From the IMG/VR virus record IMGVR_UViG_3300046779_001841, positions 192,001-256,000 of that record: a stretch of DNA of 64,000 nucleotides; one strand, given 5' to 3'. The notes beneath the pieces were generated by a model. That model was given only the letters and a program-made list of their open reading frames with translations. It ran no database searches and was not told where the DNA came from. Of the stretch, positions 1 through 64,000 are shown piece after piece. Origin of the DNA: a virus (Duplodnaviria > Caudoviricetes). Position 1 is the stretch's first letter, and each line of letters opens with the position of its first letter. A program made the position numbers and the translations under genes.

Positions 1-1351
1 GATTAGTAGATGTGTCATTTGAAATCTCTACTTCTCTTTCACTGGAAATATTATCTTCGATTAGGCTTTCCCAATCATCTTCTTTCTCAACTGTGACTTG
101 AAGATTTTGAAAGCTAAAAGAGATCGTATCATCAATTAAAATAGGTTCTGCTTTTTTAAGAAATTTAGACATCAAATAAGCATTAGCTTTCATTTCTTGA
201 TAAATTTGATAAGCATTTTTATCCGCAGTGCTTTGAATTTTGCCAAAATTTTCACTATATAGAACTGCTATGTTCTTATTGTTTTCTTCTTGGATCTTTT
301 TAACTTCTTCAGTCATCTCTGGACTGTTAGTGAAAGATACCGAATCATAATATGAAAGTTCATTAACAAGATCTTTAACTTGTTGAAAAACAAATTCATC
401 GTCTACATCCAATTCATTTATTGATGATGGTGTTAAACTTAAAAAAATATCAGTAGAGATAAAAACACCACTTTCTATTTCAAAATGAGAACTCGTTTCA
501 TCAAAACCAGAAAACTTTTCCATAAGTTTCTTAATTTTAGCTTTCTTGATAATCTCTTGTTTATCACTTTTATTTGGAACAAAAGATGTATGATATGCGA
601 CTTCTAAAGTATCATCTGTTTCTTTTATCGTTTCTGTGAAAGCACCATTTTTTGACAATTCTAGTTTCATTAATGATTTTTCATATTCTATATACTTTTG
701 TTTGATCTGCTGGATATTTTCAGATTGAACTTTTAAATTACTCTTTTTAGGTTTGATTGTGAAAATATCATATTTTAAACCTTGTAGTGTTGTTCTTGAT
801 TCCACTTCAATATTTAAATCTCTAATTTTAGCAACTACTTGTATCCATTTAGATACAAGTTGCATAGTCTTTTTGAAAAAGGATTGCAACATCAATTCTT
901 TGTTCATTTTGATTGCATCTAAATAAACTTTTTCAAAATAAGTATCTTCATCTTTCATTGCTTGTTCGTGTGATGCTTTCATCTTTTCTTCAACAAAAGA
1001 ATCTGTTCGTCTAGCAAGTAAATTTAATTCTTCCCAGATCGCATTTAATTCACTTTCAAGATCACCTTTTTGTAGTTTGATACGATAATAAATAAAGCAA
1101 GATTTCAAATCTTCATAAAAATCCCATTTAATCACATCGTCTTTTTTAGATTGCATTTTTTCTTTGAAGTAATTCACAACATAGTCATCTAAGCCAATTA
1201 GTTGTTCATAATATGTGAAAACAAATTTGCCTTCTTTAGGTAAACGACCTTTAAGAACATTGCTACCATGATTATAAATTTGAATTAAAAATTGTCCCTT
1301 AAAAGGGTTCATACTTCTATTTGGATTATTTACAAGTTTTACCACTGGCAT
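1..1351 (-). CDS. Giant SNF2-family polyvalent protein, paralog C (N-terminal ~450 aa; runs off the left edge, absent from the ORF track)
   Basis: ATG at 1351 gives MPVVKLVNNPNRSMNPFKGQFL, matching the starts of 1682..8107 and 8193..14465. The frame is open in the stretches I translated and ends ...VTVEKEDDWESLIEDNISSEREVEISND, aligning with VTVEKLSDEMVDAIPGVEREIELSDD of paralog A. Confidence 0.85.
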   Translation of the reverse strand, partial: MPVVKLVNNPNRSMNPFKGQFLIQIYNHGSNVLKGRLPKEGKFVFTYYEQLIGLDDYVVNYFKEKMQSKKDDVIKWDFYEDLKSCFIYYRIKLQKGDLESELNAIWEELNLLARRTDSFVEEKMKASHEQAMKDEDTYFEKVYLDAIKMNKELMLQSFFKKTMQLVSKWIQVVAKIRDLNIEVESRTTLQGLKYDIFTIKPKKSNLKVQSENIQQIKQKYIEYEKSLMKLELSKNGAFTETIKETDDTLEVAYHTSFVPNKSDKQEIIKKAKIKKLMEKFSGFDETSSHFEIESGVFISTDIFLSLTPSSINELDVDDEFVFQQVKDLVNELSYYDSVSFTNSPEMTEEVKKIQEENNKNIAVLYSENFGKIQSTADKNAYQIYQEMKANAYLMSKFLKKAEPILIDDTISFSFQNLQVTVEKEDDWESLIEDNISSEREVEISNDTSTN

Positions 1352-1410
1352 TTTTATCAAATCCTTTGTTTTGTTTTTAATAACATACAAAGGATTTGAT
1401 AATTTAAAAA

Positions 1411-1680
1411 CTATTCACCATCTTCTGGCAAGATAGGATTTAAAAGTGCTTTATAATCTACAAGAATATCATCATACATTGGAATACGAAATCCATTATC
1501 TCTAAACTTTAAAGCGAAAGCCTTATGAATAGTTGTGATCTCATCCATTGTTAAACCATCTTCTGTAAGCATATCAATGAAGTTTTGTGTACCTGCAAAC
1601 TTTGCTTGAACAATTAAATCTTCATCTGCAATTTGGGAAACATATAAAACCCATTCTTTAAGTGTTTTTGGTTCTGACAT
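1411..1680 (-). CDS. Small acidic hypothetical protein (89 aa)
   Basis: ORF starts 1 nt after the stop of the 2141-aa gene and fills the gap before paralog C. Confidence 0.75.
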   Translation of the reverse strand: MSEPKTLKEWVLYVSQIADEDLIVQAKFAGTQNFIDMLTEDGLTMDEITTIHKAFALKFRDNGFRIPMYDDILVDYKALLNPILPEDGE

Positions 1681-1681
1681 T

Positions 1682-4600
1682 TTATTTGCCTTTCTTTTTA
1701 GTAAATGGATTTGAAACAGGTTTCAAATCACCTTTTAATACAGAAATTTCTTTTTGAATTTCTTTAACTTTTTCTTCATTTGCAAGTTCTTGATCAATAG
1801 AAGAAAGAAGTTCGCTATCTTGTTCTGCACTCTCAGCCATCATTTGTTCATAGGATTGAAATTCTTCATCTGCAAATTTCTTTTTTGCCACACGAATATT
1901 TGATGCTTCAGGATTTCGTTCTTTCCATGTTCTAATTTTCTTTAACAACTCTATTCTTTTACTTTCTTCCATTTTTAAAAGAACATCTTTCAAGTCTTTA
2001 CTATAAGACTTGAGAATTTGAATTTGGTCAGATTTTGGTAAACGACCAACACTTGGCAAATCGTCTTCAAAAAATCTTCTCCAGCAATTTTCTCTTGTTG
2101 TGTTAAAAGGTTCGACTGGTGATGCTAGATATTGTTCTAGTGTTTCAAATCCTGCTTCTTTAGCTTTTTGGTTCATATATTTTGTTAGTTTCTTATATGA
2201 CTTAGAATTTGAATTTAAATCTAGTTCATAATGTTGTGAAGATCCATATCTCTTCCAATATTCTTCACCTGCTCTAAAAGTTTTACCATTCTCATCTCTT
2301 GATGTTATATCATATAAATCTACAATATCAATATAACCATTGGGTGAGATTTTACCTGATTTTTGAATAATATAGGCCGCCTTAGCATATCTTACATCAT
2401 AAGCAGTTGCACCATCATTTCCCAACCAATTTTTAATCTCTGATGAATAGACACCTGCCTGAATATCAGATCTAATTTCTTTTAGATCTAGCGAAAACGC
2501 ATTTATAAATTTATATGATTCAGCTTCAAATCTTTGCTTTTCAGCATCATAATTTGCAAGACTTTGATTATAAATCACCATTGCTTGATTGTACTCTTCC
2601 ATTTTCACTTCATATTCAGCTAACTTTCTTGAAAAATCAATATTGGCTTCTTCTGTTCTTTGAACAGCAAGATCATATACATCTTGAATCTCTGCTTGAT
2701 CCAAGGGTCTTTTTGTGTCTTGAATCTTATTAAAGAGTGTTATTAATACAGAATTTTGTTGAGTCAATAGAGGTGTTACAAACTGATTAAAAAGATTTAA
2801 TCGGTTTGTAAATTCATTCAACGCACCTTGTCTTTGAGTATTATTATAATGAACCATATAAGCACGATCTCTATGGTCATAAAATCTACCACTTCCTGGT
2901 TCTAGTGTCATTGGATCGATTGTATTAAATGTTGTAAGAGGATATAAATTGTTTCTATATGCTTGATTGATAACAAGTCTTAGATTAATATGTTTTTCTT
3001 TTTCTTCATCTATATTTCTTTTGGCGAAATACATATAATTAAGAAAATCAGAAACATTTGATCCAAGACTACGCTCAATGCGTCTTTTTAATTCATCATA
3101 ATTACTCACACCAAAAATCCCTATTGCTAAAGATTTTTTTTGTTCCAACATTGCATCACCTGTAGATCTTTGTCCAATCAAAGTATTTGGATCTATACCA
3201 GTAGTTATTCTTTCGGGTCTTACAGGTTTTTGTGGTTGAACAGGTACAACCAAATTAAATGTAGTATTACTAACACTCGAAGATCCTAATTTTTCTATTA
3301 CCATCTTTTCAAACTTTTTTGCTCTTTCTTTCATAGAATCCACCTGTATTCCAACTTGAGCATTATAACCGAATTTTGGCCATACATAATATCCTATAAA
3401 CTCATTAGTTTCTGATAGACCTGTTTCTGGATTAAAAGAACCCCAACCACCTGCACCTAAAGTTTTTAAAGTAGATTTACCTTCTTTTTTCATGGATATA
3501 AGTTGAGTGAATAAAGCACGATTGCCTATACTATTTGGCGCACACTTAGATGTTTTAAAGATGTTGTTCTTTACATAATCATTATTAATAGTTCTTTCCA
3601 TAGTAAGAATCCAATCACCATAACTAGAAGCATTCCCATAGTTAAATTGAATATGTTCAGGTGCGACATTTGCAATACCAGAAAGACCCATTAAATCTAC
3701 AGTTTTCTTTGAAGATGCACTTAAATTTTGGAAACTTGGATGATTAAAACGATTTGGATCTAGTTGTGTATATTTGACTGGATCTTCTCTTAATCCTCTT
3801 TCTCTTTCTTCTATCTTTAATTGCATTTCTCTAGTAGGTGCTAATGCTCTAGCAAAATTTTCCAAGTTTGGTTTAGTTGCCTTTTCAGTAACTTTACTAT
3901 GTTCAATACTATCATAATTTGCAGATAAATTAATCGCACCACTTGTAGTGATAATATCACTGAAAAACTTTTGATCTACTTCATGTACAAGTCCTCTTAA
4001 TTTATCTATTGTAATATCTCCTGCCATCTCTTGTGGCATCACTGCATCTACCATTACTTCAATTACTGCATCTTCTTGTCCTTGTCTAAAAGCACGAGCA
4101 GTCCTTTGCTTTAATTCTTCACTATCCCACCCATCTCTATCTAAATGCACAACAGCCTTAAATTGTTGTAAATTAAATCCTCTTGCATAAGATGAGTTCG
4201 CTACCATTGTTGAAACTTGATTATTCTTAGCAATAAATTTCTTTACTGTATTTACTGCCCAAGTCATATCTTCTTCTTGTGGTTCAACTGTTGCGGCCGC
4301 AGTTCTTCCCATTCTCTTTTCAATTTGTTCTGTAGTCAAACCTGCTTGTTCTAATCTTTCTTTGATTTGTTCTTCAGTAAGTTCTTTTACCATGAAATTT
4401 TGAATCTTGGTCTTCTTTGTTACACGACCTTTTGTTAAAGGCTTACCTGCTTGATAGAACACAATCGCATTTGATAAACAAAGAGCATGGACTTTGGTTG
4501 GGATTCTTAAAGACAATTTAATAACTGTTTTCTTTGCAACATCATTATCTTCTGTGAAATACAATGTTCTCTTAGGTGCATTCCCTGTTAAGAATTGAAC

Positions 4601-7600
4601 TGCAAGTTCTTCAGCTTGATCTATCTTTGGATTACTGAAAGTGTATTCTTTAGGTGGATTACCTTTCATCTTATTAAACTTTTCCATTGCTTTATGTGGG
4701 TTCAAACTGAACATATGCAAGAGAGAAATCTTATCTTTCAAATTACCGACTGCAAAATCTTTTTCTCTTTGTACAGATGCTGGGATTTCTTCTATTGGTG
4801 TGTCCGCCAATAATAAAGAATATCTATCTTTAATCTGGTTCATTTGAACAGAGATAATATCTGAAATTTCTTTATAAGCAACTGCCACTTCTTTTGGCAT
4901 ATTCACATTTGTTGTCAATTTTTGTAATGGTTGTAAAGCTACTTGACCTGCTTCTTCATAATCAACATCCATCTTATCTGCAAAATAAGCATTTTGTTTC
5001 ACCCAGTTATTAAATTGATGTCTTACTTCAGGTTTAACACCTACAAACTTGCCACCAATATTTACTGCATACTTATCCATAAATGCTTTTTCTTTAGTAG
5101 GATCGACTGGATTACCTGTTGATAAAGAAACAAATCTAAACAAATCCATAGGTGATTTTTCTAAAGCACTACCTGTTAATAAAATCTTTCTTGGATGTTT
5201 TACATTACTGATAGCTTGTGCTTTCTTTCCTTTAAGTGCTTCATTGACTTCATCAAAGATCATGCAATAATATTGTTTGAAATCAGCACCTTCTTCATAC
5301 ATTCTAACAAATTCGGTATATCCAATTTCTGTTGTTCGATTTGTTAAATTTTCAGCTACTGCTTCTTCTAAGAAGAATTTCAATTCACCCATGAAGTTAC
5401 CAACAAGACGATCTGGACCCACAATTAAAAACTTTGCATTTGGTTTTTCTTTACTTGCAAGTTGCATAGATGCAACACCAACTAAAGTCTTACCAACACC
5501 AGTATCTAATGCCATCACACCTTTAAGACCATTAGATTGTAACCATGCTAATGCTTCAATTTGTTTATTGTTAAACTTTAATGGTTTATTTGGCAATACT
5601 TCTGCTTTGAAACCACCGATTGCTTGTGGTGTAAATTTTGCTAAATTCTCTGGTTGTAAAGCACGATCTTTTTGTAAAAGCATCTTGTAGTATTTTTGTA
5701 ATTCTTCATGTGCTTTCTTAGACATTAAGCATGAACCAAGACAATCCTTGATAGCTTCATAATCATCACCTTCAAAATAGAAAGACCACCTGCGTTTTTC
5801 ACTACCAGGAACTACTTCCATTGATGCTCTTGTGTCGGATAATTTTTTAATCGCTTTTCTTTCTGGAGTATGTTTAATATCATTTGGCAAACCAATTAAG
5901 AAACGATCTCTTGCCCATGTAATATATGGTTCTTCTAAAGCATCATAATTTACTTTTACTTCACCACTATCTGTTTCGATACTTTCATAAATAGATACAA
6001 TCTCACCATTTGAACTTACAGAATAACATTTACCATCACCTGTTAATCTACCTGTTGCATTTGCCAAGTCTTCAACAGAAAATCCTTTAAAGGGTCCTCT
6101 AGTAATAATATCTTTAGTGATACCATTAATAGTAGTAGTCTTTACTTTGACCATGTGTGCAAATTTTAATGGATTTGTTCTTTTAACTGCAGTATCGTCT
6201 GATAATTCAATTTCTCTTTCAACACCAGGAATAGCATCTACCATTTCATCAGATAACTTTTCTACAGTTACAGATGGTATATTTAATTTAACTTCTGTAA
6301 AGATTGGAATAGTGTTGTTTAAAGAATCCAACTTTGGATTGCCATCACTACCCATTTCAATTTCTTGAACTGGTTGTCCATCTACCATTAAAACATTTCC
6401 TGCATTGTCTTTCTTATATACAGGCACTTTTTTAATATGTTTAAAGACGAGTTCGTGTTTCTTTACTCTTTGACCTGCTTCATTTGTAACAGTTCTTGTA
6501 ACAATCTCTGGCAAAGCATCTCTTATACTCTTATTCTTCAAATCGCTTTCTAAACGCTTTTGTTGATAAACTTCATAAGCACTTAAACGATTTTCACCTT
6601 CTATAGTGCCAAGATGTTGACTATAAATGATATTTGCTTTCTTTAAAAACTCTTCTTGTTTTTCTTTGATTTCTTGTTGAAGTGTTTTCCCATTCACGAT
6701 AGAATTTGGTTTTTCTAATTCTTTTAATTTTTTATAAGCATCAGAAATGTTTTTCTTCTTATCGTTTAACCATTCTTGTCTTTCTTGTTTTTTGGCTTGT
6801 GCAAAATTTACCCAAGACATAAGATCTTCATATCGTTCTTCTGTCTTAAGAACAGCAGAAAGGTTATTAAAAATCTCTTTATATGGTTCAAGTTCAATAT
6901 CAAAGCCCTGTGCATTAAACCATTGTTTCAAAATAAATTGATATTTACTCGCACTATCAATCTTTGATTGTTTCAATTTAGTCAATAAAGATTTTAGTGA
7001 AAATTGAACACCTGTTGGAATGCGAGGAGATATTAGATAATAATTCATTTCAATATAATTATAGATTGTTAAATCAAATTTATCGTTTTTCTCAATAATT
7101 GATTGGATGAATAAGCCTACTTGAGAATACCTTCTTTCAGTTTCTTCTTTAAGACTTCTTGTTATGGCTTTTTGATTAAAAGATAGTGCTTTATCAAGTG
7201 CAACAGATTCAGTGTCTGTAGTAAAATCTATACCTGTACCTGCTCTTGTCATGAGAGCAAGTACAGCATCGTTTTCTATAAACTTTTTCTTTCTTTGTTT
7301 TAAAACATCAGATGGAGAGATATTTTGTTCTTTATTGTTGAAATAGAGATCTAACATATCACCATCAACAGATTTATAATCTGTATATGCACCACTTCTT
7401 GATAGTTTGTCTTTAATCAAAGATTGTTCATATTGTGAATACTTTTCTTTGAGTTCTCTTACTCGTTCAAGTTGTAATACTGCATCTGTTTTTGTTTCAT
7501 GTAATGTGAAAACATCAAATTTAGCACCACTTGTTGTAAATTTCTCACTAATTTCATATGGAATATTTTTAGCTTTACAAACTAACTGAATCCATGCAGA

Positions 7601-8107
7601 CAATAATCTTAAACTTTCCTTGAAGAATGGCTTCTTATTCAAGGTCTTGATCATTTCATATGCAGGTGATGTAACAGTTTCTAATTTTGCATCTGGATCG
7701 TTTGTAAAATTTGTCCAAATCTTCTTTAATTCTTCTTCAATAAAAGCATCCACTTTATTGACTTGAATACGCAAATCAGTCCAAATATCTGTTAAGACAT
7801 CATCATCTTCTCTATTGATGAAAAAAGTCTTATACCACAAATATGCTTTTGCCAAATTCTCATCCAAAGGATACTTGGAAAAAGAAGTATCTATCTTTTT
7901 AGATGCTACTTTTTCTGTTAATTCATCAATCAGATATTCTTCAAGTTCAATCAATTCTACATAATGATTAAACAAATAAGCACCTGCACCTTGTACTTTA
8001 CCTTTGGTTTGGTCATTTCGACTTGGATTTTTGACATACCATAAGAATTGACCCTTAAATGGATTTCGACTTCTATTTGGATTACTGATAAGTTTTACAA
8101 CAGGCAT
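1682..8107 (-). CDS. Giant polyvalent protein, paralog A: SNF2/SF2 helicase-ATPase with intact motifs plus GNAT-like domain (2141 aa)
   Basis: Motif I ALDTGVGKT, II FDEVNE, III LLTGS, V SSYARGFNLQQ, VI QRTARAFRQGQ. Downstream is APNSIGNRALFTQL...IGYYVWPKFGYNA, a GNAT-like pattern. Confidence 0.8.
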   Translation of the reverse strand: MPVVKLISNPNRSRNPFKGQFLWYVKNPSRNDQTKGKVQGAGAYLFNHYVELIELEEYLIDELTEKVASKKIDTSFSKYPLDENLAKAYLWYKTFFINREDDDVLTDIWTDLRIQVNKVDAFIEEELKKIWTNFTNDPDAKLETVTSPAYEMIKTLNKKPFFKESLRLLSAWIQLVCKAKNIPYEISEKFTTSGAKFDVFTLHETKTDAVLQLERVRELKEKYSQYEQSLIKDKLSRSGAYTDYKSVDGDMLDLYFNNKEQNISPSDVLKQRKKKFIENDAVLALMTRAGTGIDFTTDTESVALDKALSFNQKAITRSLKEETERRYSQVGLFIQSIIEKNDKFDLTIYNYIEMNYYLISPRIPTGVQFSLKSLLTKLKQSKIDSASKYQFILKQWFNAQGFDIELEPYKEIFNNLSAVLKTEERYEDLMSWVNFAQAKKQERQEWLNDKKKNISDAYKKLKELEKPNSIVNGKTLQQEIKEKQEEFLKKANIIYSQHLGTIEGENRLSAYEVYQQKRLESDLKNKSIRDALPEIVTRTVTNEAGQRVKKHELVFKHIKKVPVYKKDNAGNVLMVDGQPVQEIEMGSDGNPKLDSLNNTIPIFTEVKLNIPSVTVEKLSDEMVDAIPGVEREIELSDDTAVKRTNPLKFAHMVKVKTTTINGITKDIITRGPFKGFSVEDLANATGRLTGDGKCYSVSSNGEIVSIYESIETDSGEVKVNYDALEEPYITWARDRFLIGLPNDIKHTPERKAIKKLSDTRASMEVVPGSEKRRWSFYFEGDDYEAIKDCLGSCLMSKKAHEELQKYYKMLLQKDRALQPENLAKFTPQAIGGFKAEVLPNKPLKFNNKQIEALAWLQSNGLKGVMALDTGVGKTLVGVASMQLASKEKPNAKFLIVGPDRLVGNFMGELKFFLEEAVAENLTNRTTEIGYTEFVRMYEEGADFKQYYCMIFDEVNEALKGKKAQAISNVKHPRKILLTGSALEKSPMDLFRFVSLSTGNPVDPTKEKAFMDKYAVNIGGKFVGVKPEVRHQFNNWVKQNAYFADKMDVDYEEAGQVALQPLQKLTTNVNMPKEVAVAYKEISDIISVQMNQIKDRYSLLLADTPIEEIPASVQREKDFAVGNLKDKISLLHMFSLNPHKAMEKFNKMKGNPPKEYTFSNPKIDQAEELAVQFLTGNAPKRTLYFTEDNDVAKKTVIKLSLRIPTKVHALCLSNAIVFYQAGKPLTKGRVTKKTKIQNFMVKELTEEQIKERLEQAGLTTEQIEKRMGRTAAATVEPQEEDMTWAVNTVKKFIAKNNQVSTMVANSSYARGFNLQQFKAVVHLDRDGWDSEELKQRTARAFRQGQEDAVIEVMVDAVMPQEMAGDITIDKLRGLVHEVDQKFFSDIITTSGAINLSANYDSIEHSKVTEKATKPNLENFARALAPTREMQLKIEERERGLREDPVKYTQLDPNRFNHPSFQNLSASSKKTVDLMGLSGIANVAPEHIQFNYGNASSYGDWILTMERTINNDYVKNNIFKTSKCAPNSIGNRALFTQLISMKKEGKSTLKTLGAGGWGSFNPETGLSETNEFIGYYVWPKFGYNAQVGIQVDSMKERAKKFEKMVIEKLGSSSVSNTTFNLVVPVQPQKPVRPERITTGIDPNTLIGQRSTGDAMLEQKKSLAIGIFGVSNYDELKRRIERSLGSNVSDFLNYMYFAKRNIDEEKEKHINLRLVINQAYRNNLYPLTTFNTIDPMTLEPGSGRFYDHRDRAYMVHYNNTQRQGALNEFTNRLNLFNQFVTPLLTQQNSVLITLFNKIQDTKRPLDQAEIQDVYDLAVQRTEEANIDFSRKLAEYEVKMEEYNQAMVIYNQSLANYDAEKQRFEAESYKFINAFSLDLKEIRSDIQAGVYSSEIKNWLGNDGATAYDVRYAKAAYIIQKSGKISPNGYIDIVDLYDITSRDENGKTFRAGEEYWKRYGSSQHYELDLNSNSKSYKKLTKYMNQKAKEAGFETLEQYLASPVEPFNTTRENCWRRFFEDDLPSVGRLPKSDQIQILKSYSKDLKDVLLKMEESKRIELLKKIRTWKERNPEASNIRVAKKKFADEEFQSYEQMMAESAEQDSELLSSIDQELANEEKVKEIQKEISVLKGDLKPVSNPFTKKKGK

Positions 8108-18564: not shown

Positions 18565-19233
18565 TTAGATTTTAAGTGTTGTCACTTTTTTGTTTTCTGT
18601 TTCTTGTTGTTCTACAAGTCTTATATTATTCCATCCTAATAATACATCATCTACACCTCTTGACCATGCAATATGTCCTTCACATAATGGTCTGTTTGGA
18701 TCAACCACAATCCAAGTAGGTTTATTTAGATGTTGTCTTAACTCGATTGTTTCTATCAACACTTCTGGCATTGCTGAATTTCTTGCCATCTTCACACCTA
18801 ATCTTACTATCAAGAGTGCTGGTGCTTCTGCCATATCTTCTAAACCACGAACTGTAATTTCTCTTGTGAAATCTGGATCTACTATTTCAGATTGTGATGC
18901 AGAAATATTAGAAAGCCATGCACTCATTAAATTCGCATCAGATACTACTTTAATAAACAATGCTGGATTTTTTTCTAAGAAAATTGCACCTTTTAAATGA
19001 GAACACAATTCTGTTTTCTCTGCATGAATAATGATGTTCTCTTTTAATTTGCCTTTTAGTGGTGTTGTCTTTTTCGCAGGAAATTGACTTAACCCAGTCC
19101 ATGCTTTTTCACATTGGTTTTTCAAATGTATTTTAAACACACAAGAACATTGTGACATGATAGGTTCATCTCTATAAAATTGACCACTTGGAACTATTCC
19201 TATACCACCACATTTTTCACAAACTTTACTCAT
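18565..19233 (-). CDS. DnaC/IstB-like helicase loader homolog with degenerate ATPase motifs
   Basis: N-terminal CEKCGGIG..QCSC zinc knuckle, position just upstream of DnaB, and LLIVRLG..EVLIETIELRQHLNKPTWIV resembling the loader core. No GxxGxGK[TS]. Confidence 0.6.
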   Translation of the reverse strand: MSKVCEKCGGIGIVPSGQFYRDEPIMSQCSCVFKIHLKNQCEKAWTGLSQFPAKKTTPLKGKLKENIIIHAEKTELCSHLKGAIFLEKNPALFIKVVSDANLMSAWLSNISASQSEIVDPDFTREITVRGLEDMAEAPALLIVRLGVKMARNSAMPEVLIETIELRQHLNKPTWIVVDPNRPLCEGHIAWSRGVDDVLLGWNNIRLVEQQETENKKVTTLKI

Positions 19234-29854: not shown

Positions 29855-29855
29855 T

Positions 29856-40847: not shown

Positions 40848-41843
40848 TTAATAAAATATATGTGCTTGGCTTTCTGCATAAGCCTGATTACTAATTTCCA
40901 CCCATTTCGCTTTAAATTGTAATTCTCTTATTGTTCTTGCTCCACTATAACTCAATCCACTTCTTATATTGATTGCTATCTCATCCAATATATCATCTAC
41001 AGATCCTTTATATCCTACTTGATGACTTACACCTTCTACTGATCTCACTGTTCCTCTCCATTGTGATTGTGCTTCTTTACTTGCCATTCCTACATACTTC
41101 TTATATTTATTTCCATGTTCATCTGTATGCACTTTACCTGGTGCTTCATCTGTACCTGCTAAATATGAACCTAGCATTACAAAATTCGCACCACCTGCTA
41201 GACACTTAACCATATCACCTGTTGTCTTAATCCCACCATCTGCAATAATTGGCATCTCATAAGTTGAACTTGCACAATCAAATACACTCGCAAGTGTTGG
41301 AATACCATGTCCTGTTTGTATTCTTGTTGTACAAATAGAACCACCACCTATTCCTACACGAACTGCATTTGCACCAGCATCTATTAAAAATTCATAACCA
41401 TCTTTAGTCGCTACATTTCCAGCGATTACATATACTTTACCATAACCATATCTTCTTCTGATCTCTTTTAAAGCATCTCCTACAACTTTTGTATGTCCAT
41501 GTGCAACATCCAAACAAAAATCTGTAATTCCCATTTCTACAAATTTATCCAAATCATTGATCTCATTACAACCTATCGCAACACATGAACTTCTTGATCT
41601 GGATGAAAGTGAAATTCTTTCTTCTATGGTATTATATCTATGAATAACACCATAACCACCTTTTTTATTCATTGCCAAAGCCATTTCATCTTCTGTTACT
41701 GTTGTCATTGGTGATGACATAACAGGTAAAGATAAAGAACGATCACCTAGTTTAGAAGATAAATCTATTTCATCTCTGGATGCTATATCTGAATATTGTG
41801 GTGAAATAAGATAGTCATTGAAAGTTTTTAAAAGCATTTGCAT
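40848..41843 (-). CDS. guaB: IMP dehydrogenase / GMP reductase family protein without CBS domains
   Basis: [84 protein letters not shown]. Confidence 0.85.
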
Positions 41844-44900: not shown

Positions 44901-47063
44901 AGATAGATTACTTGGTAAAACATAAGATGCTTCTTGTTGTGTAAATACACCATCAAGATTGCTATCAAATTCCACTGATGAAATGAAATCTCTTGGATGA
45001 TTACCAAAAGGATCTTGATTTACATCTGCATCATAAGAAGAGTTAGCATTTAAAGTTAAAGTTTGACCTGTATATCCAGTAAAGATTTCAGTGATTGGAA
45101 CAGGTGCATGATTATATTTGCTTATGCTTATAGATACTGCATCTACATCATCTACAATTCGATTAAGATTATCTATTGTTCTAAGTGTTACTTTTTGTTT
45201 AAGTGTTTGACCCCAATCTACATTATTTGTGTAGGTATATGTAAATTTTTCATTGATGTCATTTGTTGTGAAATCCCAGATTGTTTCATTTTCGTCAACA
45301 ATAAGGTTCTTATTTATATCTTCATTGCAGTTATTAATCTCATTTATGGAACAATCGGGTAAAGTATGATCTATATGGTCGATCACATTCCATTTAAATG
45401 TAGTAATGCTTACTTCTGGATCAAGAACATAAGACCATGAATGATCAAAAGTAACAGTATTGTTAGGTGAAATAAGTTGTGGTGTTGCTTTGGCATAAGG
45501 TTGAACTTCTAACCAAGATTGAATAATTTGTGTAATAACAGATGTTCTTTCATTAGTAGAGAAAGAACCACTCCAAAGCCAATTACCAGTCCAAGTCCAA
45601 GTACCATTTGTTTGTTGTTTAGAAGAACCATTAGAATTTTTATTTGGATTTTTTCCAGTGATAAAGAAATCAGTAAATTCATTTGACCAATGAATACCAT
45701 TTGGCAAATAAGTTATTTCTGGTGAAAAAGATCTAAGACCTTTTGTAGAAGCGTAGATATAGTAAAGACCCCAATGGTTACTATCAGTAAGATACCAAGA
45801 TTGGATAGCATTAATAGAATTATTAACTTGTGCATTTGTGTTTAAGTCCTCGTTTTCAGTCCATCCATAACCAACAAGTGTATTACCTGCTAGTTTGCCA
45901 TTACCATTACCATCATAATAACATATACCATTTGGACAATAAAGTGACAACCAATCTCTTTGTTTTGTTTTAAAAGTTTCATAATCTACATTATTAAATT
46001 TTCTTTTAAGAATACGAATAGCTTCTGGTGCCCAACCATTTGTTGAAGCATCATCTGTTGCACCAGCAAGATTACTGCAAGTATAAAACCATGCACCATC
46101 TGAAGTAGTGCATTGTAAAAGACCATCAATAATATCTTGACCAATATTTTTAAGATCTACACCAAAGATACCTTGCCTACCTACAGGTGAAATATAAGAA
46201 GAATTACCAAAATTTGCCAAAGGTTCTGACCATGCAGTCGATTCATAACTTGACCAAAAGAAAGCATTAAGATTATTTAATGCTACAAATTCCATTCCTT
46301 TACCTGCATTACCTAAAACATCAGTATCTGTAAATCCTATGTTCTTTAATTGCATTGTAGATAAAATAGAATGTAATCCACATTGTGTAAGATGTCTATA
46401 ATATGGATCGTTATCTTTATTTAAACCAAAACCATGTCCTCGTCTTAGAAAAGCATTTAAAGCCATACCTGTAGAATATAATGTTTGATTGCCAGGTACA
46501 TAACATAGGTGTTCATTATGACCAAGAGAATCATTTCCTTTATGAATAGCTTGTCTAAACAAATACCATAAAGCTATATCTACTGCACGACTAGAATAGA
46601 TTTGTCTTGTTAAATTAAGATTGCCATCGTTCGCATTACAATTCGCATTTAAAGGATCGTTGTAGTAATTATTGCAAATACGATCTACATGGATAAGAAC
46701 AGGCATGATAGCAGATGCAATTTCATTACCACAAGACACTTCTACTTTAGGATATATATAAGTGTTACCTAAAACATTTGGATATTGATATGAGAGATGA
46801 AGTGGTGCAAAAAAAGGATTGCCAGTGATTGAGATACTTGTTTCACTCGCATCATCAAAATCACCATCACCATTTACATCCCATCGATAAGAATAAGATG
46901 CACAATTACCACCTTCAACAATAGCTTGTAAATGAGTAGGCAAACCATTTAGTGCGATATGTGGAATATCTGGATTAGATTGCACATAAGGAATAGTAGA
47001 TACTTTTAAAGGTTCAGCATAAAGAGAACTGAATAAAAGTAGGAATATAAGCAGGTATTTCAT
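41910..47063 (-). CDS. Large secreted cell-surface protein: prenyltransferase/squalene-cyclase-like barrel, PKD/Ig-like repeats, MYXO-CTERM-like anchor
   Basis: Signal peptide MKYLLIFLLLFSSLYA; AVDIALWYL, DGAWFY, YYIYASTKGL, QQTNGTW motifs; repeated NQAP/YxWxxxxDG/GDGSS units; DM-rich linker; GGSCQ plus hydrophobic helix plus RR at the C-terminus. Confidence 0.7.
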   Translation of the reverse strand: MKYLLIFLLLFSSLYAEPLKVSTIPYVQSNPDIPHIALNGLPTHLQAIVEGGNCASYSYRWDVNGDGDFDDASETSISITGNPFFAPLHLSYQYPNVLGNTYIYPKVEVSCGNEIASAIMPVLIHVDRICNNYYNDPLNANCNANDGNLNLTRQIYSSRAVDIALWYLFRQAIHKGNDSLGHNEHLCYVPGNQTLYSTGMALNAFLRRGHGFGLNKDNDPYYRHLTQCGLHSILSTMQLKNIGFTDTDVLGNAGKGMEFVALNNLNAFFWSSYESTAWSEPLANFGNSSYISPVGRQGIFGVDLKNIGQDIIDGLLQCTTSDGAWFYTCSNLAGATDDASTNGWAPEAIRILKRKFNNVDYETFKTKQRDWLSLYCPNGICYYDGNGNGKLAGNTLVGYGWTENEDLNTNAQVNNSINAIQSWYLTDSNHWGLYYIYASTKGLRSFSPEITYLPNGIHWSNEFTDFFITGKNPNKNSNGSSKQQTNGTWTWTGNWLWSGSFSTNERTSVITQIIQSWLEVQPYAKATPQLISPNNTVTFDHSWSYVLDPEVSITTFKWNVIDHIDHTLPDCSINEINNCNEDINKNLIVDENETIWDFTTNDINEKFTYTYTNNVDWGQTLKQKVTLRTIDNLNRIVDDVDAVSISISKYNHAPVPITEIFTGYTGQTLTLNANSSYDADVNQDPFGNHPRDFISSVEFDSNLDGVFTQQEASYVLPSNLSKISIPFKICDDGQWTDSCLDGVEKTDCSLCSFGSVIVNILPNTQPPVIVETVSNNLIDLNQSFDPENLNVSYQVEVISGQGSFNEIATGVYEYIPVGDGYRIDTIKVTATDSGGLVSTKSIYVEVPNIPPVIESLLVEHRNLSPIISSVEIEKQGNGFYEIQIYAEPNPMIEVKGIATITDFDPFITATFNDNIVVDTPPFITPYIVSLNTGIFTVSAFDGSDTSSLYSQAYSFNKANSLSYTIDINDIAYVEVVNSSLNTYTFKATSDETPVRIIVKDNLGLEREYQVNLNTFNQAPLVLDVDVTQNTNTITVFVNATDMDNDSLQYVFNAGDGSSSITNNTGIFVYTYTSYGSFTPSVSVMDSRGSQSQQILETLNFMENQAPMINSITNLIGYAGKCWLIVDAKDPNNDELSYIVEVNGNTYTQLDFDLPYRTEPYPALITVKDTNGLSTSRITEIIIPDAPTILNMNKHLLAGGSYLIVVNATDPDTSVLKYYWKVNADQEYEERTNLEIFDLDVNQQHTLYLKVKDTWSNVETEISIVIEPQPTPLISDVDVEIGAGGLVNLRVISDTLFLNYEVDWNDGVVNNSLEHKYEWKETPYLVKIKGFTSNRQSEIFTKEIQVVNHPTELNEVQVWQDDGVLTLNVMANDIDVDDLLYTIDFENDGVFERERSWSGNQIYEAHRAGVMPVKILIHDEWSNTTTEIIKQVDVEAWLLTVDNIQSEEGRCVVLSATEIDNPKVNLENCNLETDETSDYLWLLENEVDKHGEEVSYLFEDDGIYTIKMISPFGYYNKIRVHVTNTAPVFISLPDTIAYAGRIYKYDIQVKDQGKFDLIEVKLGAGSPTEMTIEQIDENLFRLEWRVASNLAGTEASVNLIALDYQGSDDHYLYDGGRTEQSFRIRVLSDNNLNVQENDMSIENDMRVDKDIDMLLDQMIKDMKVQPLDDMYPIMYEDKGTTKKTKFQGGSCQNIDHTANLLFMLMILVLFTRRYFKNQ

Positions 47064-48179: not shown

Positions 48180-51100
48180 ATGGCTAAGAGTAGAAAAATA
48201 GCTATGTCTGATGAACAAGAAGAAGTCTTAGATAAAAAGACTTTACTCGATCTAACAAGATTTCTTTTAATTTTAAAGAAGTGTGTTGATCTTCAGTTGC
48301 CTGAAAACATTATAAATGATGGTTTAGATCTATATCGTTTAAATATTTCTAAGATTCAAGAAATAGGCGATATGCTCTTTGATGAGATCGTAGCTAATAG
48401 TTCTCGTCTGAATCCTTTTTATACCAAATATCGTTTAGCTAAAAAAACCTTTGATGTAGAATCCTTAAATAACAGGATTCCTTTAATAGAAGGTTGTTTT
48501 AAGTATTTGCATTTAAATCAAGTTTCTTTAATAGAATTTGCAGAAAATGAACCAGTATTGGTATTGAACCTTAAAGATATTATTCAAGGTATTTTAGAGA
48601 ATAATTTGAATGAGAGTTTAAAGCTACTATTGAACATTCCATCATTCTTATTTTTAAAGTCTGGTGCAAGATCACCACAAAATTGGATTGAGGCTTTAAT
48701 TAAAGCAAATATTACAGGTGCAAGTAAGACACAAAAAGTCGATGCAATCTTGGCAATCAATCAAAGCTATGTAAATCTTGCTAAAGATATTAGAACTCTT
48801 GATACACAGATTAGAAGTTTCACTCCAAATTCAAGAGAATTTATAGAGAAACAAGAGCAAAGACAAGAGTTATTAACAAAACTTATAAATGAAGTTCAAG
48901 ACAAAGAAGGTAATGATGCTAAGAATATCTTGTCAAATTTGACAAGTATCATTCATAGTAGTGAAACACATCAAACTGTAGTCGGTGCTAGATTAAAATT
49001 AACACCTGAACAAGAAAATGCCATGATGGTAGATGGTAAATCAATTATCGCGGCTGGTGCAGGTTCTGGTAAAACTCGTGTCTTGGCTGGTCGTGTTGCT
49101 TGGCTGATTCAAGAAAAAGGTGTTCCTGCATCAAGTATCATGGCAACATCCTTTACAGCCAATTCTGCAACAGAATTAAAAGAAAGAATTGAAAAACCAG
49201 AATTTGCAGGTGATGGTGCAATTCAAGGTAAAGGTTTTGGTACTTCACACTCAATCGCATTTAGTATCTTGCAACAATTTAGTCCAGTATCAAATGTAGA
49301 TTTCAATTTAGATAGTAAGTTGATGATTTTAGCTTTAAAGCAAGTACAAATGTCACCTACAAGTGGAGTACCTTTAGGCAAGATGTCTAATAAGCCAATC
49401 TTTAATCAATATACACAAAACGATATTGATAACTATATTAAGATGGTCAATACCTTTATGGACTATGCAAATTATTTTCTTTCTCAATCTAGTACACCAC
49501 CAGATGCAAAAGAAGATTTGAAAAAAGATATTGTTGTTTTGAACCAAATTATTCAAAACAAGTTATTGCCTTATGATCTTTCTAAAGATCAAAAAGACCA
49601 TTTAAATAATATGATTGCATCACCTAGAGGCAAACAAGTTTTTAATAGGTTAATAGGTGAATATAAACTTACTCATTTAGAGAGATTACAAAAAATAGGT
49701 TCAGAAGAAGAGAACCAACCATATAGAGATTTACAGCGTGAATCTGATAAAAGACAAAAAGGCAAATCTCCAAAAGATTCACCTTATAACACTGAACCTG
49801 CGAATATGTGGTTTAATTTAGGATTAAATCAAGAAGGAATAGAAGCACAAGCTAGTCTATTAAAAAATGCTGGTTTATTTGATAAGGCAGATAATTTACA
49901 AGATGATTTTGAAGAATTTTTAAAAAAGGCACATGGCGAATCCAAGTTCTTCCAAAAGCAAGTTTCTAAATGTTATAACAATGTGATGTCTGTAAAACAA
50001 CTTAAAGATTCTTTAAAGCCTAATTTCTTGAATAATGCTTTAGTTGCAGTTTATGGTGCTTATTTGTGGCTAAAAGAAAATGATCTTACTTTTGCTAATA
50101 CTATCAGTGGTGATGATATGTTAATTAAGGCAATAGGTTTGATGTTAGAAAAGCCCAGTGTTTTAAGTGCATTACAAACTCAATATAAACATATCATGGT
50201 AGATGAAGCACAAGACTTAAATAAATCACAACATATCTTCTTTGGATTGATCGCAGGGACAATCAATCCTGGTAATTTATTACCATATACAGATGGTAGA
50301 CCAATGAGAGCAAAATCTTTTGTTTTGATTGGTGATGATAAACAAGCGATTTATGAATTTAGAGGTGCTACACCACAAACATTTATTGAGAAGTCTGATT
50401 TATTACAAGGTGATTTTAAGACTGCTATTATTCCTACAAACTTTAGAAGTGGAAATAGTATTGTAGATTCAGCTAATAAATTGATTGCATATAATGATCA
50501 AATTCCTATGACTTGTGTATCTGTACCATCCAAAGGATTGGGAACAATCTATACAGAAAAAACACCAGATCCATCATTTACTGCACCTGCTATTCATTTG
50601 ATGGCTGAGATTAAAACACATATTGGATTAGGTGGTAAAATAGAAGATTATGGTGTGGCAACAAGAAGTAAAAAACAAGCATTCCCATTCTTATTAGAAG
50701 CATTAAAAGAAAAGATACCATTTAGATCACAAATTAATCCTTTATCTAAAGAAAACTTTCAAGCTATTTTTAGATGGCTTGAATTTATCAGTCTTCCAGA
50801 TAGTGATGTTTCTAAATTAAATAGTTTGATTTTAGAACTATATAAGGGCGGTACTGTTTTCTATTTAGGTGAAAAGAACTTTACTGAACCTTTAAAAGAA
50901 TATCTACAAGCTAATAGAAATGCCAATCTATTAACAAATATGCCACTTCATTTATTCCCACAAACATCAACTTCTTTTGTGAAGAGTAGTGTTGAGAAAT
51001 ATTTGAATGTTTTAGTATCTGCAAGACAAATTCAAGGTAGTGCGACTGATTGTCTTGTGAAATTATTAAAACTTAAAGATTTAAAGAAACATACTTTTGC

Positions 51101-51662
51101 AGAAGTTTTCTTTCCTATACAAGAAGATGATGGCAAAGAAAAAGATGATGAAGAAGAAGATAAATCAAAAGATTATGAGATCATGTTATCTTTATTAGAT
51201 TTTACAGATAATCCAGCAGTAGTAACTTTAGCAGATGTTATTGTAGAGATTAAAAAATTCACTAAAACTGTAGAAGAAGGTAGAAAAGAAAACAAAGGTA
51301 TGTTGATAGACACTATGCACCAATGGAAAGGTTTAGAGTGTAAATATCTCACCACTATTTTTGCTGATAATTTCCCAAGAATGAAAGGTGATGATATGAC
51401 TGATGAAGAGTATGAAGCAGAATTAGCAAGTGAAAGAAGACTTGCTTATGTTGCTTTAACTCGTGGTCAAGATCAAGTGCGTGTTATATCTAATACTCAA
51501 GTTAAAGTATGGGATAGTACTGTAAAAGATTGGAAAATGAAAAATGTTACACCATCTAGGTTTATTGAAGAGGCTTGTATTCCACAAAAATTTAAAGTAG
51601 AAAAACAATCTTCATTGGAAATTCATGTAGAAGATATATTGCATTTCATGATTAAAAAATAA
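48180..51662 (+). CDS. uvrD: UvrD/REP-family SF1 helicase with long N-terminal extension
   Basis: LTPEQENA, AAGAGSGKT, VDEAQDLN, IGDDKQAIYEFRGA, NFRS, TMHQWKGLE, ERRLAYVALTRG. Confidence 0.9.
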   Translation: MAKSRKIAMSDEQEEVLDKKTLLDLTRFLLILKKCVDLQLPENIINDGLDLYRLNISKIQEIGDMLFDEIVANSSRLNPFYTKYRLAKKTFDVESLNNRIPLIEGCFKYLHLNQVSLIEFAENEPVLVLNLKDIIQGILENNLNESLKLLLNIPSFLFLKSGARSPQNWIEALIKANITGASKTQKVDAILAINQSYVNLAKDIRTLDTQIRSFTPNSREFIEKQEQRQELLTKLINEVQDKEGNDAKNILSNLTSIIHSSETHQTVVGARLKLTPEQENAMMVDGKSIIAAGAGSGKTRVLAGRVAWLIQEKGVPASSIMATSFTANSATELKERIEKPEFAGDGAIQGKGFGTSHSIAFSILQQFSPVSNVDFNLDSKLMILALKQVQMSPTSGVPLGKMSNKPIFNQYTQNDIDNYIKMVNTFMDYANYFLSQSSTPPDAKEDLKKDIVVLNQIIQNKLLPYDLSKDQKDHLNNMIASPRGKQVFNRLIGEYKLTHLERLQKIGSEEENQPYRDLQRESDKRQKGKSPKDSPYNTEPANMWFNLGLNQEGIEAQASLLKNAGLFDKADNLQDDFEEFLKKAHGESKFFQKQVSKCYNNVMSVKQLKDSLKPNFLNNALVAVYGAYLWLKENDLTFANTISGDDMLIKAIGLMLEKPSVLSALQTQYKHIMVDEAQDLNKSQHIFFGLIAGTINPGNLLPYTDGRPMRAKSFVLIGDDKQAIYEFRGATPQTFIEKSDLLQGDFKTAIIPTNFRSGNSIVDSANKLIAYNDQIPMTCVSVPSKGLGTIYTEKTPDPSFTAPAIHLMAEIKTHIGLGGKIEDYGVATRSKKQAFPFLLEALKEKIPFRSQINPLSKENFQAIFRWLEFISLPDSDVSKLNSLILELYKGGTVFYLGEKNFTEPLKEYLQANRNANLLTNMPLHLFPQTSTSFVKSSVEKYLNVLVSARQIQGSATDCLVKLLKLKDLKKHTFAEVFFPIQEDDGKEKDDEEEDKSKDYEIMLSLLDFTDNPAVVTLADVIVEIKKFTKTVEEGRKENKGMLIDTMHQWKGLECKYLTTIFADNFPRMKGDDMTDEEYEAELASERRLAYVALTRGQDQVRVISNTQVKVWDSTVKDWKMKNVTPSRFIEEACIPQKFKVEKQSSLEIHVEDILHFMIKK

Positions 51663-55997: not shown

Positions 55998-56984
55998 ATG
56001 AATAGATCACAAACTATCGCTACATTATATAAATTATCTTTCCAATCACCACAAGGTCATAATTTAAGACAGGCTTGTCTTATGGCAATGGGTAAAATTC
56101 GTCTTGCAAATGAACAAGACAAAGTAGAAACTATTGTTGAAGATTTGGAAAATGCACCTAAAAATGTTCAAGATGAAACTAAGCTAAATATAGTTAGTGA
56201 ATTGGCAATCAAAACTATTGAAGAAGAAACCAAAAGACTTGCACCTAAAGGTTTGAACTTAATTAAAGCATGGATTAAGAAACATAGTGTTCAAATAAAA
56301 GATATTCAAAACAAAGCATTTGCAATAGCGACTTCTCCTATTGATGCAGTTTCCATCGCTTTTGATGTTATACAATTTAATCTAAACAAAAAGAAAGATG
56401 GTGGTGATCTTGTAGGCACTATTGGTTTTATTGCATCTGTTCTTTCTGCTGATTCTCCAGAAGATCTTGTTGAATCAGAAAGTAAAGAATGGGAAAAATT
56501 TAAACCTTATTTACCAGCATTTTTAGGTTTGGGTGCGGCCGCTGTTGATGAACATTGGATTCATATTCAAAAATATGTTTTGAAATATGGATATGAAACA
56601 ATGACTGCAGTTAAGATGTGGATAAAAGGTGCATCTTGGTTAAAAATTGTAGGTACTGTAGCAGGTTCTTTTACAATCATTTTAGCACTATGTGTTCTTT
56701 TTGGCACACATAACATTTATATGTTACTTAAAAAAATCGCAACACTTGTCTTTGGTTTACCTTTAGCTATTCTTAATGATGCTATTTCTGTTTTGAGATG
56801 GGGATTTAGCGAAATTAAATCTTTCTTTAATAATGCTGGTAAAAAAGTTCAAGACTGGTGGGATGAAGAAGAAGGTGAGATTGTTAAAAAAACTGCCAAT
56901 CGTATTGTCCTTCGTGAATTTAAAAAACTTGCTTTACATGATGAAAGATTTTATCGTCTTGCAAATAAATCCTTTGGTCTTTAA
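55998..56984 (+). CDS. Hypothetical membrane-associated protein, paralog of 36586..37617
   Basis: IVGTVAGSFTIILALCVLFG and IATLVFGLPLAIL hydrophobic segments; shared terminal modules. Confidence 0.72.
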   Translation: MNRSQTIATLYKLSFQSPQGHNLRQACLMAMGKIRLANEQDKVETIVEDLENAPKNVQDETKLNIVSELAIKTIEEETKRLAPKGLNLIKAWIKKHSVQIKDIQNKAFAIATSPIDAVSIAFDVIQFNLNKKKDGGDLVGTIGFIASVLSADSPEDLVESESKEWEKFKPYLPAFLGLGAAAVDEHWIHIQKYVLKYGYETMTAVKMWIKGASWLKIVGTVAGSFTIILALCVLFGTHNIYMLLKKIATLVFGLPLAILNDAISVLRWGFSEIKSFFNNAGKKVQDWWDEEEGEIVKKTANRIVLREFKKLALHDERFYRLANKSFGL

Positions 56985-60372: not shown

Positions 60373-60373
60373 A

Positions 60374-60867: not shown

Positions 60868-60870
60868 GAC

Positions 60871-62463: not shown

Positions 62464-62550
62464 TCAAAAAAAATCATAATCTTGTGTAAAATTTAAGAAT
62501 AAAAATATAAGTAAATACAACATTAAATCACTTAAAAAAGGATAGTAAAA

Positions 62551-63063: not shown

Positions 63064-63074
63064 GAGCAAATATC

Positions 63075-63584
63075 ATGAGAGTTATTTCCAAAGCAAAAGC
63101 TACTCTTGAAGAAAAATATCGTCAAATCACAGGTCATCCATCTAATGATGGTTATGTCGAAAATTATATCATCAATAATATGTATGAAAGATTTATTGGA
63201 TATGGTCGTAGTGTATGGTTAGGTGCATATTATTGGCTTCCCAATGATCATGGTTTAAGTCCAGAAGTTGAAGCTGAATACAATGCTCTTTATAAGAGAT
63301 TTCAAGAATTAGATCGCGCTCTTGATTCTACTGTTAAAGAAATGAACAACCTTAGAATTGAAGGTGTTGAATTTCTTCAAAGACAAGATATTGATAGAAA
63401 AGACATCCACAAAGAGTTTATTGTCATCAATGATTTTGAAACATATACTGCACTTGAAACCAAGATTAAAGCACTGAAACAAATTCTAAAAGAAACACCA
63501 AAGAATAAATCTACTCTTGCAGATAGAGAACACTTAACACAACAAATCACTGACTTAGAAACACAACTAAGACAAGTGAAATAG
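63075..63584 (+). CDS. Tandem ~170-aa paralog 2
   Basis: LEEKYRQITGHPSNDG..YERFIGYG..DIHKEF. Confidence 0.8.
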   Translation: MRVISKAKATLEEKYRQITGHPSNDGYVENYIINNMYERFIGYGRSVWLGAYYWLPNDHGLSPEVEAEYNALYKRFQELDRALDSTVKEMNNLRIEGVEFLQRQDIDRKDIHKEFIVINDFETYTALETKIKALKQILKETPKNKSTLADREHLTQQITDLETQLRQVK

Positions 63585-63596
63585 GAGTTATAAATC

Positions 63597-64000
63597 ATGG
63601 GAAGAAAAAGAGGCATTACTCAAGAAAGAGCAACACTTGAAAGAGTATATCGTAATCTCAGTGGTCATAAATGTAATGATGGCTGGGTTATGGACTGGAA
63701 ATCTTGGAACTGCAGTTATAGATTTTGGAGTTTTAATCGCAGTGCTTGGCTAGGAGAATTTTATCCTATTGAAAAAGATGAACACATCAGTGATGAACTT
63801 CGTGCTGAGTATGAAGCCATTCAAAAACAAGCTACTGAACTTCAAAGAACTATCGATTATTCTATTTCTACATTAAACGATCTTCGTAGGCAAGGTGTTG
63901 AGTTTTTTACCAAGCATGGTATTGATAGAAAAGACATCCATAAACCTTTTGAAATTCGTCAAGATCCAGATTACGAACAAAAGTACCAAGCACTTGAAAC
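63597..64000 (+). CDS. Tandem paralog 3 (partial, runs off the right edge; absent from the ORF track)
   Basis: ATG 63597 after AGGAG: MGRKRGITQERATLERVYRNLSGHKCNDGW..YRFWSF..DRKDIHKPF. Confidence 0.8.
   Translation, partial: MGRKRGITQERATLERVYRNLSGHKCNDGWVMDWKSWNCSYRFWSFNRSAWLGEFYPIEKDEHISDELRAEYEAIQKQATELQRTIDYSISTLNDLRRQGVEFFTKHGIDRKDIHKPFEIRQDPDYEQKYQALE

Follow-up and report, generated by a model that had tools for sequence, protein, structure and literature searches.

The 64,000-nucleotide stretch analysed here (the window) is positions 192001–256000 of the single 316,221-bp contig, 31.1% GC, of IMG/VR record IMGVR_UViG_3300046779_001841, a virus of the Caudoviricetes. Taken together with the rest of the contig, it belongs to a phage genome that appears to have been swept clean, by restriction pressure, of the words recognised by many type II enzymes and by some that resemble type IIS, a reading to which we would give a probability of roughly 85%. 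A preliminary description of the window, made from reading the letters, had drawn attention to the absence of GCWGC and had proposed restriction as the cause of its purging; the cause still offers the best explanation, the absence being far beyond chance, but a focus on GCWGC was too narrow: no fewer than 20 independent words of restriction type, this one included, are absent or almost absent across the genome.

By exact count the window holds no GCAGC, GCTGC, AAGCTT or ATGCAT. For GCWGC, base composition predicts 27 sites, Markov-1/2 models 33–40 and a shuffle of codons within genes 62.5 ± 7.3, the lowest of 200 shuffles giving 42; set against the Markov and codon-shuffled nulls, the word is thus far below expectation, as the preliminary description had supposed. 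AAGCTT and ATGCAT, whose absence that description had noted with less certainty, are expected 22.8–36 and 25.7–41 times, respectively, under Markov-1/2 and the codon shuffle. The list of missing words is considerably longer:

1–64000, no strand: words absent throughout the window, namely GCWGC, AAGCTT, ATGCAT, ACGT, RCATGY, TCTAGA, GATATC, CAATTG, GAATTC, TTCGAA, GWGCWC and GAGAC

A scan of the window and the whole genome with the 600 REBASE-derived recognition sites available in Biopython, together with nulls from Markov-1/2 models, synonymous-codon resampling on the real proteins and within-gene codon shuffling, finds the same pattern at full scale. GCWGC occurs once in 316,221 bp, between genes at genome position 119860, where 160–187 sites are expected under the Markov models and 300 ± 17 under the codon shuffle. 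RCATGY (276–289 expected), ACGT (118–245), ATGCAT (151–213) and AAGCTT (~155) are all at zero, as are TCTAGA, GATATC, CAATTG, TTCGAA, GWGCWC, GTGCAC and GGTACC; GAGAC is left with three occurrences (177–332 expected), GDGCHC with one (129–169 expected) and GAATTC with one. Expressed as enzymes, the most depleted recognition sites are those of NspI, NsiI/AvaIII, HindIII, XbaI, BsmAI, TseI/BbvI, MaeII, EcoRV, MfeI, BstBI, EcoRI and HgiAI. Almost half of the hexamer palindromes (31/64) never occur in coding DNA; for 16 of these the codon shuffle predicts between 12 and 166 copies each. Summed over 25 motifs, the deficit relative to the codon shuffle amounts to ~2,784 sites in 299 kb of coding DNA, or about one removed per 110 coding bases. 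An unbiased scan of hexamers finds depletion of at least 10-fold in 11 of the 35 testable palindromes versus 31 of 1425 non-palindromes; these 31 mostly contain GCAGC, GAGAC, GACTC or ACGT. Other words are spared: GATC and TGCA stand at 1.2 times expectation, TTAA at 1.0 and CTGCAG at 0.9, and AGATCT, TGATCA, TTGCAA and TTTAAA are also at or above it. The surviving sites are scattered, with no clusters found in a genome-wide search, and this rules out a recently imported, foreign island.

How the banned set is distributed among relatives bears on both its age and its cause. The gene for an SNF2 helicase (window 19230–20834, minus strand) served as the marker that retrieved 33 related IMG/VR loci, at 64–94% identity and 32–50% GC, and four relative records, G001 to G004, were read at 196–200 kb each, which with the present genome makes five large genomes spanning 31–48% GC. 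Across these five the observed and expected counts of RCATGY are 0/289, 0/187, 0/133, 0/166 and 0/157, ACGT is at zero in every one against an expectation of up to 514, and the core ban also takes in ATGCAT, AAGCTT, GAATTC, GCTAGC, GGTACC, CTCGAG and GRCGYC. The part of it made up of RCATGY, ACGT and ATGCAT is common to the 33 relatives. For GCWGC the corresponding counts are 1/187, 1/159, 33/259, 10/256 and 9/220, and in several of the related loci the word is at expectation (L004 to L006, with 18/15, 15/13 and 10/11, as well as L009 and L028). It shares this variability between lineages with CAATTG, CTGTC, GCAAGC, CCWGG, CTGCAG, GATATC, TCTAGA and TTCGAA. Among the five large genomes, CTGTC (24/373) and GCAAGC (3/69) are banned only in the present one, GAGAC and GACTC in this genome and G001 but no other, and CCWGG in G001 alone (1/116), while CAATTG stands at 0/180 here versus 44/105 in G001. 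This genome and G001 are ~80% identical in nucleotide sequence over 72% of G001, and among the 204 CTGTC sites that could be aligned between them only five are conserved, where chance would keep about one third. The banned set is made up of an old layer common to the phage family and of young layers that differ by lineage, and the 33 relatives amount to a natural time series in which old and new bans, and the fate of a ban when methylases arrive, can be followed.

These comparisons leave little room for mutation bias, or for a general dislike of palindromes through hairpin or cruciform formation, as the source of the pattern in place of restriction. It is true that words containing G or C become rarer in an AT-rich genome and that CTAG, among other words, is scarce in many genomes. 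However, nulls that keep composition (Markov-1/2, synonymous resampling and the codon shuffle) still predict tens to hundreds of sites, AT-rich palindromes such as CAATTG, GATATC, GAATTC and TCTAGA are hit while GATC, TGCA, TTAA, TTTAAA and AGATCT are normal, and close relatives that match in composition do not ban the same set of words, all of which makes such a bias an extremely improbable cause.

One further four-base word was met in the mid-GC relatives G002, G003 and G004 (loci L055–L084), where AATT is down 7- to 15-fold (56/830, 122/1042 and 175/1124); this is a ban on an AT-only word, on a scale comparable to that on ACGT. Here and in G001 the reduction of AATT is much milder, to ~0.65 of expectation.

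A by-product of the GCWGC ban is a set of NotI sites, GCGGCCGC, which the preliminary description had attributed to recoding of Ala-Ala. There are four in the window, versus ~0.02 expected from base composition and 0.0 from the codon shuffle, and eight in the genome, versus ~0.1 from base composition. All four window copies had been placed by eye, the last two with coordinates off by one, and all four are in-frame Ala-Ala-Ala encoded GCG GCC GCW:

4293–4300, minus strand: GCGGCCGC, Ala-Ala-Ala (...GRTAAATVE...) in the gene for a 2141-aa SNF2-like protein (1682–8107); G001 has Gly-Ala-Val (GGT GCA GTA)
19546–19553, minus strand: GCGGCCGC, Ala-Ala-Ala (...ITMAAAEGV...) in the SNF2 helicase gene (19230–20834)
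30414–30421, plus strand: GCGGCCGC, Ala-Ala-Ala (...VTQAAALES...) in the gene for a 1554-aa protein (29658–34322); G001 has Ser-Ala-Ser (TCA GCA TCA)
56535–56542, plus strand: GCGGCCGC, Ala-Ala-Ala (...GLGAAAVDE...) in a gene at 55998–56984; G001 has Ala-Val-Ala (GCA GTC GCT)

Beyond these, the window contains just two GCNGC words, both at isolated Ala-Ala pairs that had been noticed, within a base, in the preliminary description:

2376–2380, minus strand: GCCGC on the plus strand; isolated Ala-Ala, GCG GCC on the gene strand
49050–49054, plus strand: GCGGC; isolated Ala-Ala, GCG GCT, in a helicase gene (48180–51662)

The ortholog alignments indicate how the NotI sites arose. At the triplet in the SNF2 helicase five codings are found, GCG GCC GCA here, GCT GCA GCT in L004 to L006, GCG GCG GCA in G001, GCG GCG GCT in G003 and GCG GCT GCC in G002; because the GCT GCA GCT of the unpurged relatives is recoded here to GCG GCC GCA, the sequence comparison identifies the NotI sites as a by-product of the ban. 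Could GCGGCCGC instead be selected in its own right, as a binding, packaging or methylation site akin to HIP1, a palindrome of cyanobacteria? The eight copies for ~0.1 expected might be taken that way, as might the use of exactly GCG GCC GCW in all seven Ala-Ala-Ala of the genome and the milder depletion of Ala-Ala-Ala than of Ala-Ala overall (7 observed versus ~16 expected, compared with 31 versus 293). Yet an iterated palindrome of the HIP1 kind is kept as DNA whatever the frame or peptide, and GCGGCCGC does not behave in this way: seven of the eight copies are in frame as Ala-Ala-Ala, in unrelated genes and with flanks that are not shared, the orthologous positions of relatives hold Ala-Ala-Ala in other codons or other residues altogether, and in G001 there can be no more than one copy (CGGCCG count 1). 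As the word follows directly from the GCWGC ban combined with tolerance of GGCC, we consider a function of its own very improbable.

A largely non-coding stretch of 1.3 kb (genome 118604–119860) contains the only out-of-frame NotI site (119061), the genome's only GCWGC (119860) and a GCGGC between genes (118604).

The ban has also left its mark on the proteins. GCWGC is observed 0 times in coding DNA, and its expectation there is 39.5 ± 3.7 if the proteins stay as they are and only their synonymous codons are drawn anew, versus the 300 ± 17 of the codon shuffle, from which it follows that most of the avoidance lies in the amino-acid sequence. Genome-wide, Ala-Ala is the most depleted dipeptide, with 31 observed versus 293 expected. 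GCA and GCT are the usual Ala codons, as had been remarked for the window (2805 and 1945 uses in the genome versus 271 for GCC and 363 for GCG), and the surviving Ala-Ala pairs are all GCS-GCN, with GCG-GCC 16 times, GCC-GCT eight times and GCC-GCA five times among the 31. What unpurged relatives have at the same places can be seen in orthologous genes, where their GCWGC sites are in-frame Ala-Ala in 19 of 19 cases; at these positions the present phage has an amino-acid change in 14, a synonymous GCS recoding in four and a gap in one. The preliminary view that Ala-Ala is recoded into rare codons consequently holds for the pairs that survive, but most pairs were lost through protein change, as both the 14 of 19 orthologous sites and the 31 pairs left of 293 indicate.

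Other dipeptides are strongly depleted as well, namely Pro-Trp, Gly-Pro, Trp-Pro, Pro-Gly, His-Met, Met-His, Thr-Val and Val-Thr, and their codons would spell other banned words (CCNNGG, GGNCC, ATGCAT/RCATGY and ACGT/GTNAC). Across relatives, the observed-to-expected ratio of Ala-Ala is 0.06–0.11 in AT-rich purged genomes, ~0.45 in mid-GC purged genomes, whose Ala-Ala pairs begin with GCS, 0.5–1.1 in unpurged relatives and 0.9–1.25 in three cyanophages; Ala-Ala depletion thus tracks the GCWGC purge and GC content. Defence systems, it seems fair to say, can limit not just the choice of codons but the protein sequence itself, to the point of reducing one common dipeptide ten-fold, and our reading of the literature turned up nothing specific on dipeptide loss through restriction avoidance.

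GCG-GCW pairs are almost unused throughout the genome (CGGCA is found twice versus 30 expected), which hints at one more avoided word.

In one respect this lineage seems to be leaving avoidance behind. Where the preliminary description spoke of a single phage methyltransferase, the genome has five C5-cytosine DNA methyltransferase genes (PF00145), a family with no member in the four relatives, among them one that is 93% and one that is 100% complete. Enzymes of PF01555 and PF02086 were not found in this phage. Compared with G001, two of the five genes stand out as clean insertions, and one of the five lies in the window:

39361–40488, plus strand: C5-cytosine DNA methyltransferase gene (PF00145), in a segment of 1590 bp where G001 has 63 bp instead, a lineage-specific insertion

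Alongside these genes, several words are relaxed in this phage alone. GCGC occurs 24 times here versus 0 in all four relatives, where 47–301 are expected, CTGCAG 77 times versus nine, one, 0 and 0 in the relatives, and CCWGG stands at 91/154 here versus 1/116 in G001. GCG-GCC, which makes GGCC, accounts for 16 of the 31 Ala-Ala pairs here versus 1 of 13 in G001, which still avoids GGCC (6/143). Methylation would thus seem to be replacing avoidance at a few words, GCGC, CTGCAG, CCWGG and probably GGCC. A comparison with structures in the PDB gave only catalytic-domain matches to M.HaeIII and M.HhaI, which is too little for assigning sites. The strongest-scoring of the five methylase genes is adjoined by one for a small SWIM zinc-finger protein (genome 179187–179555, minus strand; locus L034:952–1320), which lies in a segment that differs from G001.

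The presence of methylase genes raises the matter of self-avoidance, in which the phage itself, or a co-infecting element, would carry at least one nuclease of restriction type that lacks a methylase of its own specificity, would use it on host or rival DNA, and would itself be protected by having none of the sites. This could explain a few words, and it draws some encouragement from four small genes adjoining the methylases that have no recognisable family, restriction nucleases being often unrecognisable by sequence. Against it, a scan of the neighbouring genes with Pfam and PADLOC found no nuclease family beside any of the five methylases, more than 20 specificities are not plausibly all phage-borne, and the core purge is common to relatives with very different gene content. 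We regard self-avoidance as unlikely.

Under restriction pressure, then, we envisage that phage genomes bearing a site were cut in hosts with the matching enzyme and that variants lacking it took over. In an AT-rich genome most sites would have been destroyed by G/C-to-A/T changes that alter the protein, and the dipeptides that spell banned words would have become rare in the process, Ala-Ala for GCWGC and Pro-Trp, Gly-Pro, Met-His and Thr-Val for others. Where Ala-Ala had to stay, its first codon may have been switched to GCG or GCC, and Ala-Ala-Ala would then become GCG GCC GCW and hence a NotI site. Rather than the one GCWGC-directed host defence first suggested, the pattern fits a large, shifting pool of enzymes, and a host population with such a pool of restriction systems would match the old and young layers of bans. 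The present lineage has also gained its five C5 methylases and may be moving from avoidance to methylation for GCGC, CTGCAG, CCWGG and probably GGCC.

Several considerations weigh against this account. As more than 20 specificities exceed the repertoire of most single strains, a pool at the level of the population has to be assumed. The weaker depletions (CTAG, CCTC/GAGG and GANTC) may stem from avoidance of words resembling ribosome-binding sites or from general biases. The gain of methylases and the relaxation of words are a correlation in a single lineage, and the G001 fragment covers the loci of just two of the five methylases, the other three lying outside it.

As to which host imposed the ban, the fingerprint of missing words was tested against a published table for Microcystis and against phages of known host. 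The table (Additional file 8 of Frangeul et al. 2008, PMC2442094) covers Microcystis aeruginosa PCC 7806, and its 41 rarest 6-mers collapse to RCATGY, GDGCHC, ATGCAT, TTCGAA, GGTACC, ACTAGT, GCTAGC, ACGT-containing words and a few others. Words rare in Microcystis are purged here in 18 of 26 testable cases versus 147 of 1885 other words (p = 2.5e-14), the four relatives behaving alike, and when only palindromes are considered in 11 of 16 versus 10 of 33 (p = 0.012). The same enrichment is seen in Nostoc phage N1 and Planktothrix phage PaV-LD, and it is not seen in three negative controls, Flavobacterium phage 11b, the 485-kb uncultured phage LR745208 and the Acidobacteria jumbo phage Tunturi_5. 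A host in the Cyanobacteria is a possibility, though less likely than not, and a good deal counts against it. Neither nblA (PF04485) nor psbA (PF00124) was found in this genome, nor nblA in the four relatives; CGATCG stands at 0/3 here and at 0/22, 0/22 and 0/20 in relatives versus 35/4 in N1 and 28/6 in PaV-LD; N1 and PaV-LD show no avoidance of ACGT, GCWGC and AAGCTT; and LMM01, a genuine Microcystis phage, has almost no purge (1/32 words). On the side of a cyanobacterial host is the ribosome-binding site AAGGA, which is used by about 45% of genes (35–46% of gene starts genome-wide, ~30-fold enriched, with GGAGG almost unused) and argues against Bacteroidota hosts. It is somewhat more speculative still to view the banned set as a fast-evolving record of the restriction systems met by each lineage, in which the old core (RCATGY, ATGCAT, TTCGAA, GGTACC and GDGCHC) would point to cyanobacteria, probably filamentous or colonial bloom formers, as the hosts of this widespread phage family, and in which the lineage with five methylases would be letting GCGC, GGCC, CTGCAG and CCWGG drift back.

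Other routes did not point to a host. GCWGC, which had been put forward as a handle for host prediction, is a weak one when used alone, its purge being patchy among relatives and GCWGC methylases occurring in unrelated lake bacteria; nothing that was tested supports the Myxococcota host that had been envisaged. A MYXO-CTERM tag on a large surface protein (1717 aa), from which the idea of such a host stemmed, is not borne out, as no NCBIfam sorting-tag model (MYXO-CTERM, GlyGly-CTERM, PEP-CTERM or T9SS) matches it and Pfam finds only PKD/Ig domains. The best-scoring C5 methylase is ~60% identical to proteins in many phyla, its only GTDB matches being a Minisyncoccia metagenome-assembled genome (MAG) at 45% and a Bacteroidetes MAG at 35%, and a GMP reductase, an old gene of the phage family at ~53% identity to many phyla, carries no lineage signal; both were set aside as host indicators. 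Should the host be found, the banned list offers a testable prediction of its restriction repertoire.

The phage itself is a complete, circularly assembled freshwater jumbo phage. Its 316,221-bp record has a completeness rating of 100% in IMG/VR, and bases 1–20 of the contig recur at 316202–316221, as in a circular assembly, the record being classed as linear. Near-identical DNA is found in lake and freshwater metagenomes from 11 studies. The genome encodes a DnaB helicase, the SNF2 helicase and very large proteins without assigned function; a gene for ribosomal protein S21 was not found in the 316 kb, and a terminase was not detected by PF17289 or PF03237. For the SNF2 helicase the best GenBank match is an uncultured 485-kb phage (56% identity), followed by an Acidobacteria jumbo phage (30%), with no close cultured relative among the matches, and in the literature we found nothing specific describing this phage family. 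The GMP reductase gene (IMPDH/GMPR family, Pfam E = 9e-93; window 40848–41843, minus strand) is 65–89% conserved in related metagenomic contigs, and its product has ~53% identity to bacterial enzymes of several phyla. Next to it, at 41910–47063 on the minus strand of the window, is the gene for the secreted 1717-aa protein with PKD/Ig domains, which ends in GGSCQ, a hydrophobic helix and Arg-Arg. CCTC/GAGG is rarer than expected here (203/929) and commoner than expected in the mid-GC relatives.

Restriction-site avoidance is a textbook phage defence. Sites of host enzymes are counter-selected in the Anabaena and Nostoc cyanophages A-1, N-1 and A-4L, and among coliphages there are GATC-free and CCWGG-poor examples; Rusinov et al. 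are said to have surveyed such avoidance across phage genomes in 2018. The known cases resemble the present one in that type II words are far below the expectation from composition while other palindromes are normal, and in Nostoc phage N1, as measured here, RCATGY is at 0/48, GDGCHC at 0/36, ATGCAT at 0/19, TTCGAA at 0/18 and GGCC at 0/56. Here, however, the scale is larger, with 316 kb, at least 20 words that include the 4-mer ACGT and ~2,800 sites missing, and there is in addition a 10-fold dipeptide loss, a 33-member family with old and young layers, and one lineage with methylases and relaxed words. Microcystis PCC 7806 offers a different parallel, a chromosome that avoids the sites of its own enzymes, with RCATGY, GDGCHC, ATGCAT, TTCGAA, GGTACC, ACTAGT, GCTAGC and ACGT-containing words rare in both, whereas AAGCTT, TCTAGA, GATATC, CAATTG, GAATTC, GCWGC and GAGAC are banned here and are not on the Microcystis list.

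GCWGC-specific systems with a recognition sequence equal to the word banned here are TseI and ApeKI, together with BbvI for GCAGC, none of them linked to the host of this phage. The TseI/ApeKI-type enzyme named in the preliminary description cannot be singled out from the BbvI type, because GCAGC and GCTGC are reverse complements and form an identical word set on double-stranded DNA. The Lake Biwa Chloroflexi lineage with a GCWGC methylase is high in GC. Its methylase activity was shown experimentally for M.AbaBS3I (PMC6329791), and the Lake Biwa GCWGC enzymes are orphan methylases. Few genomes of this size are purged to such a depth, and the banned list doubles as a list of enzymes that will not cut this DNA in the laboratory. 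Set beside these systems, the phenomenon is a known one, of which the present phage is an unusually extreme and unusually well documented case.

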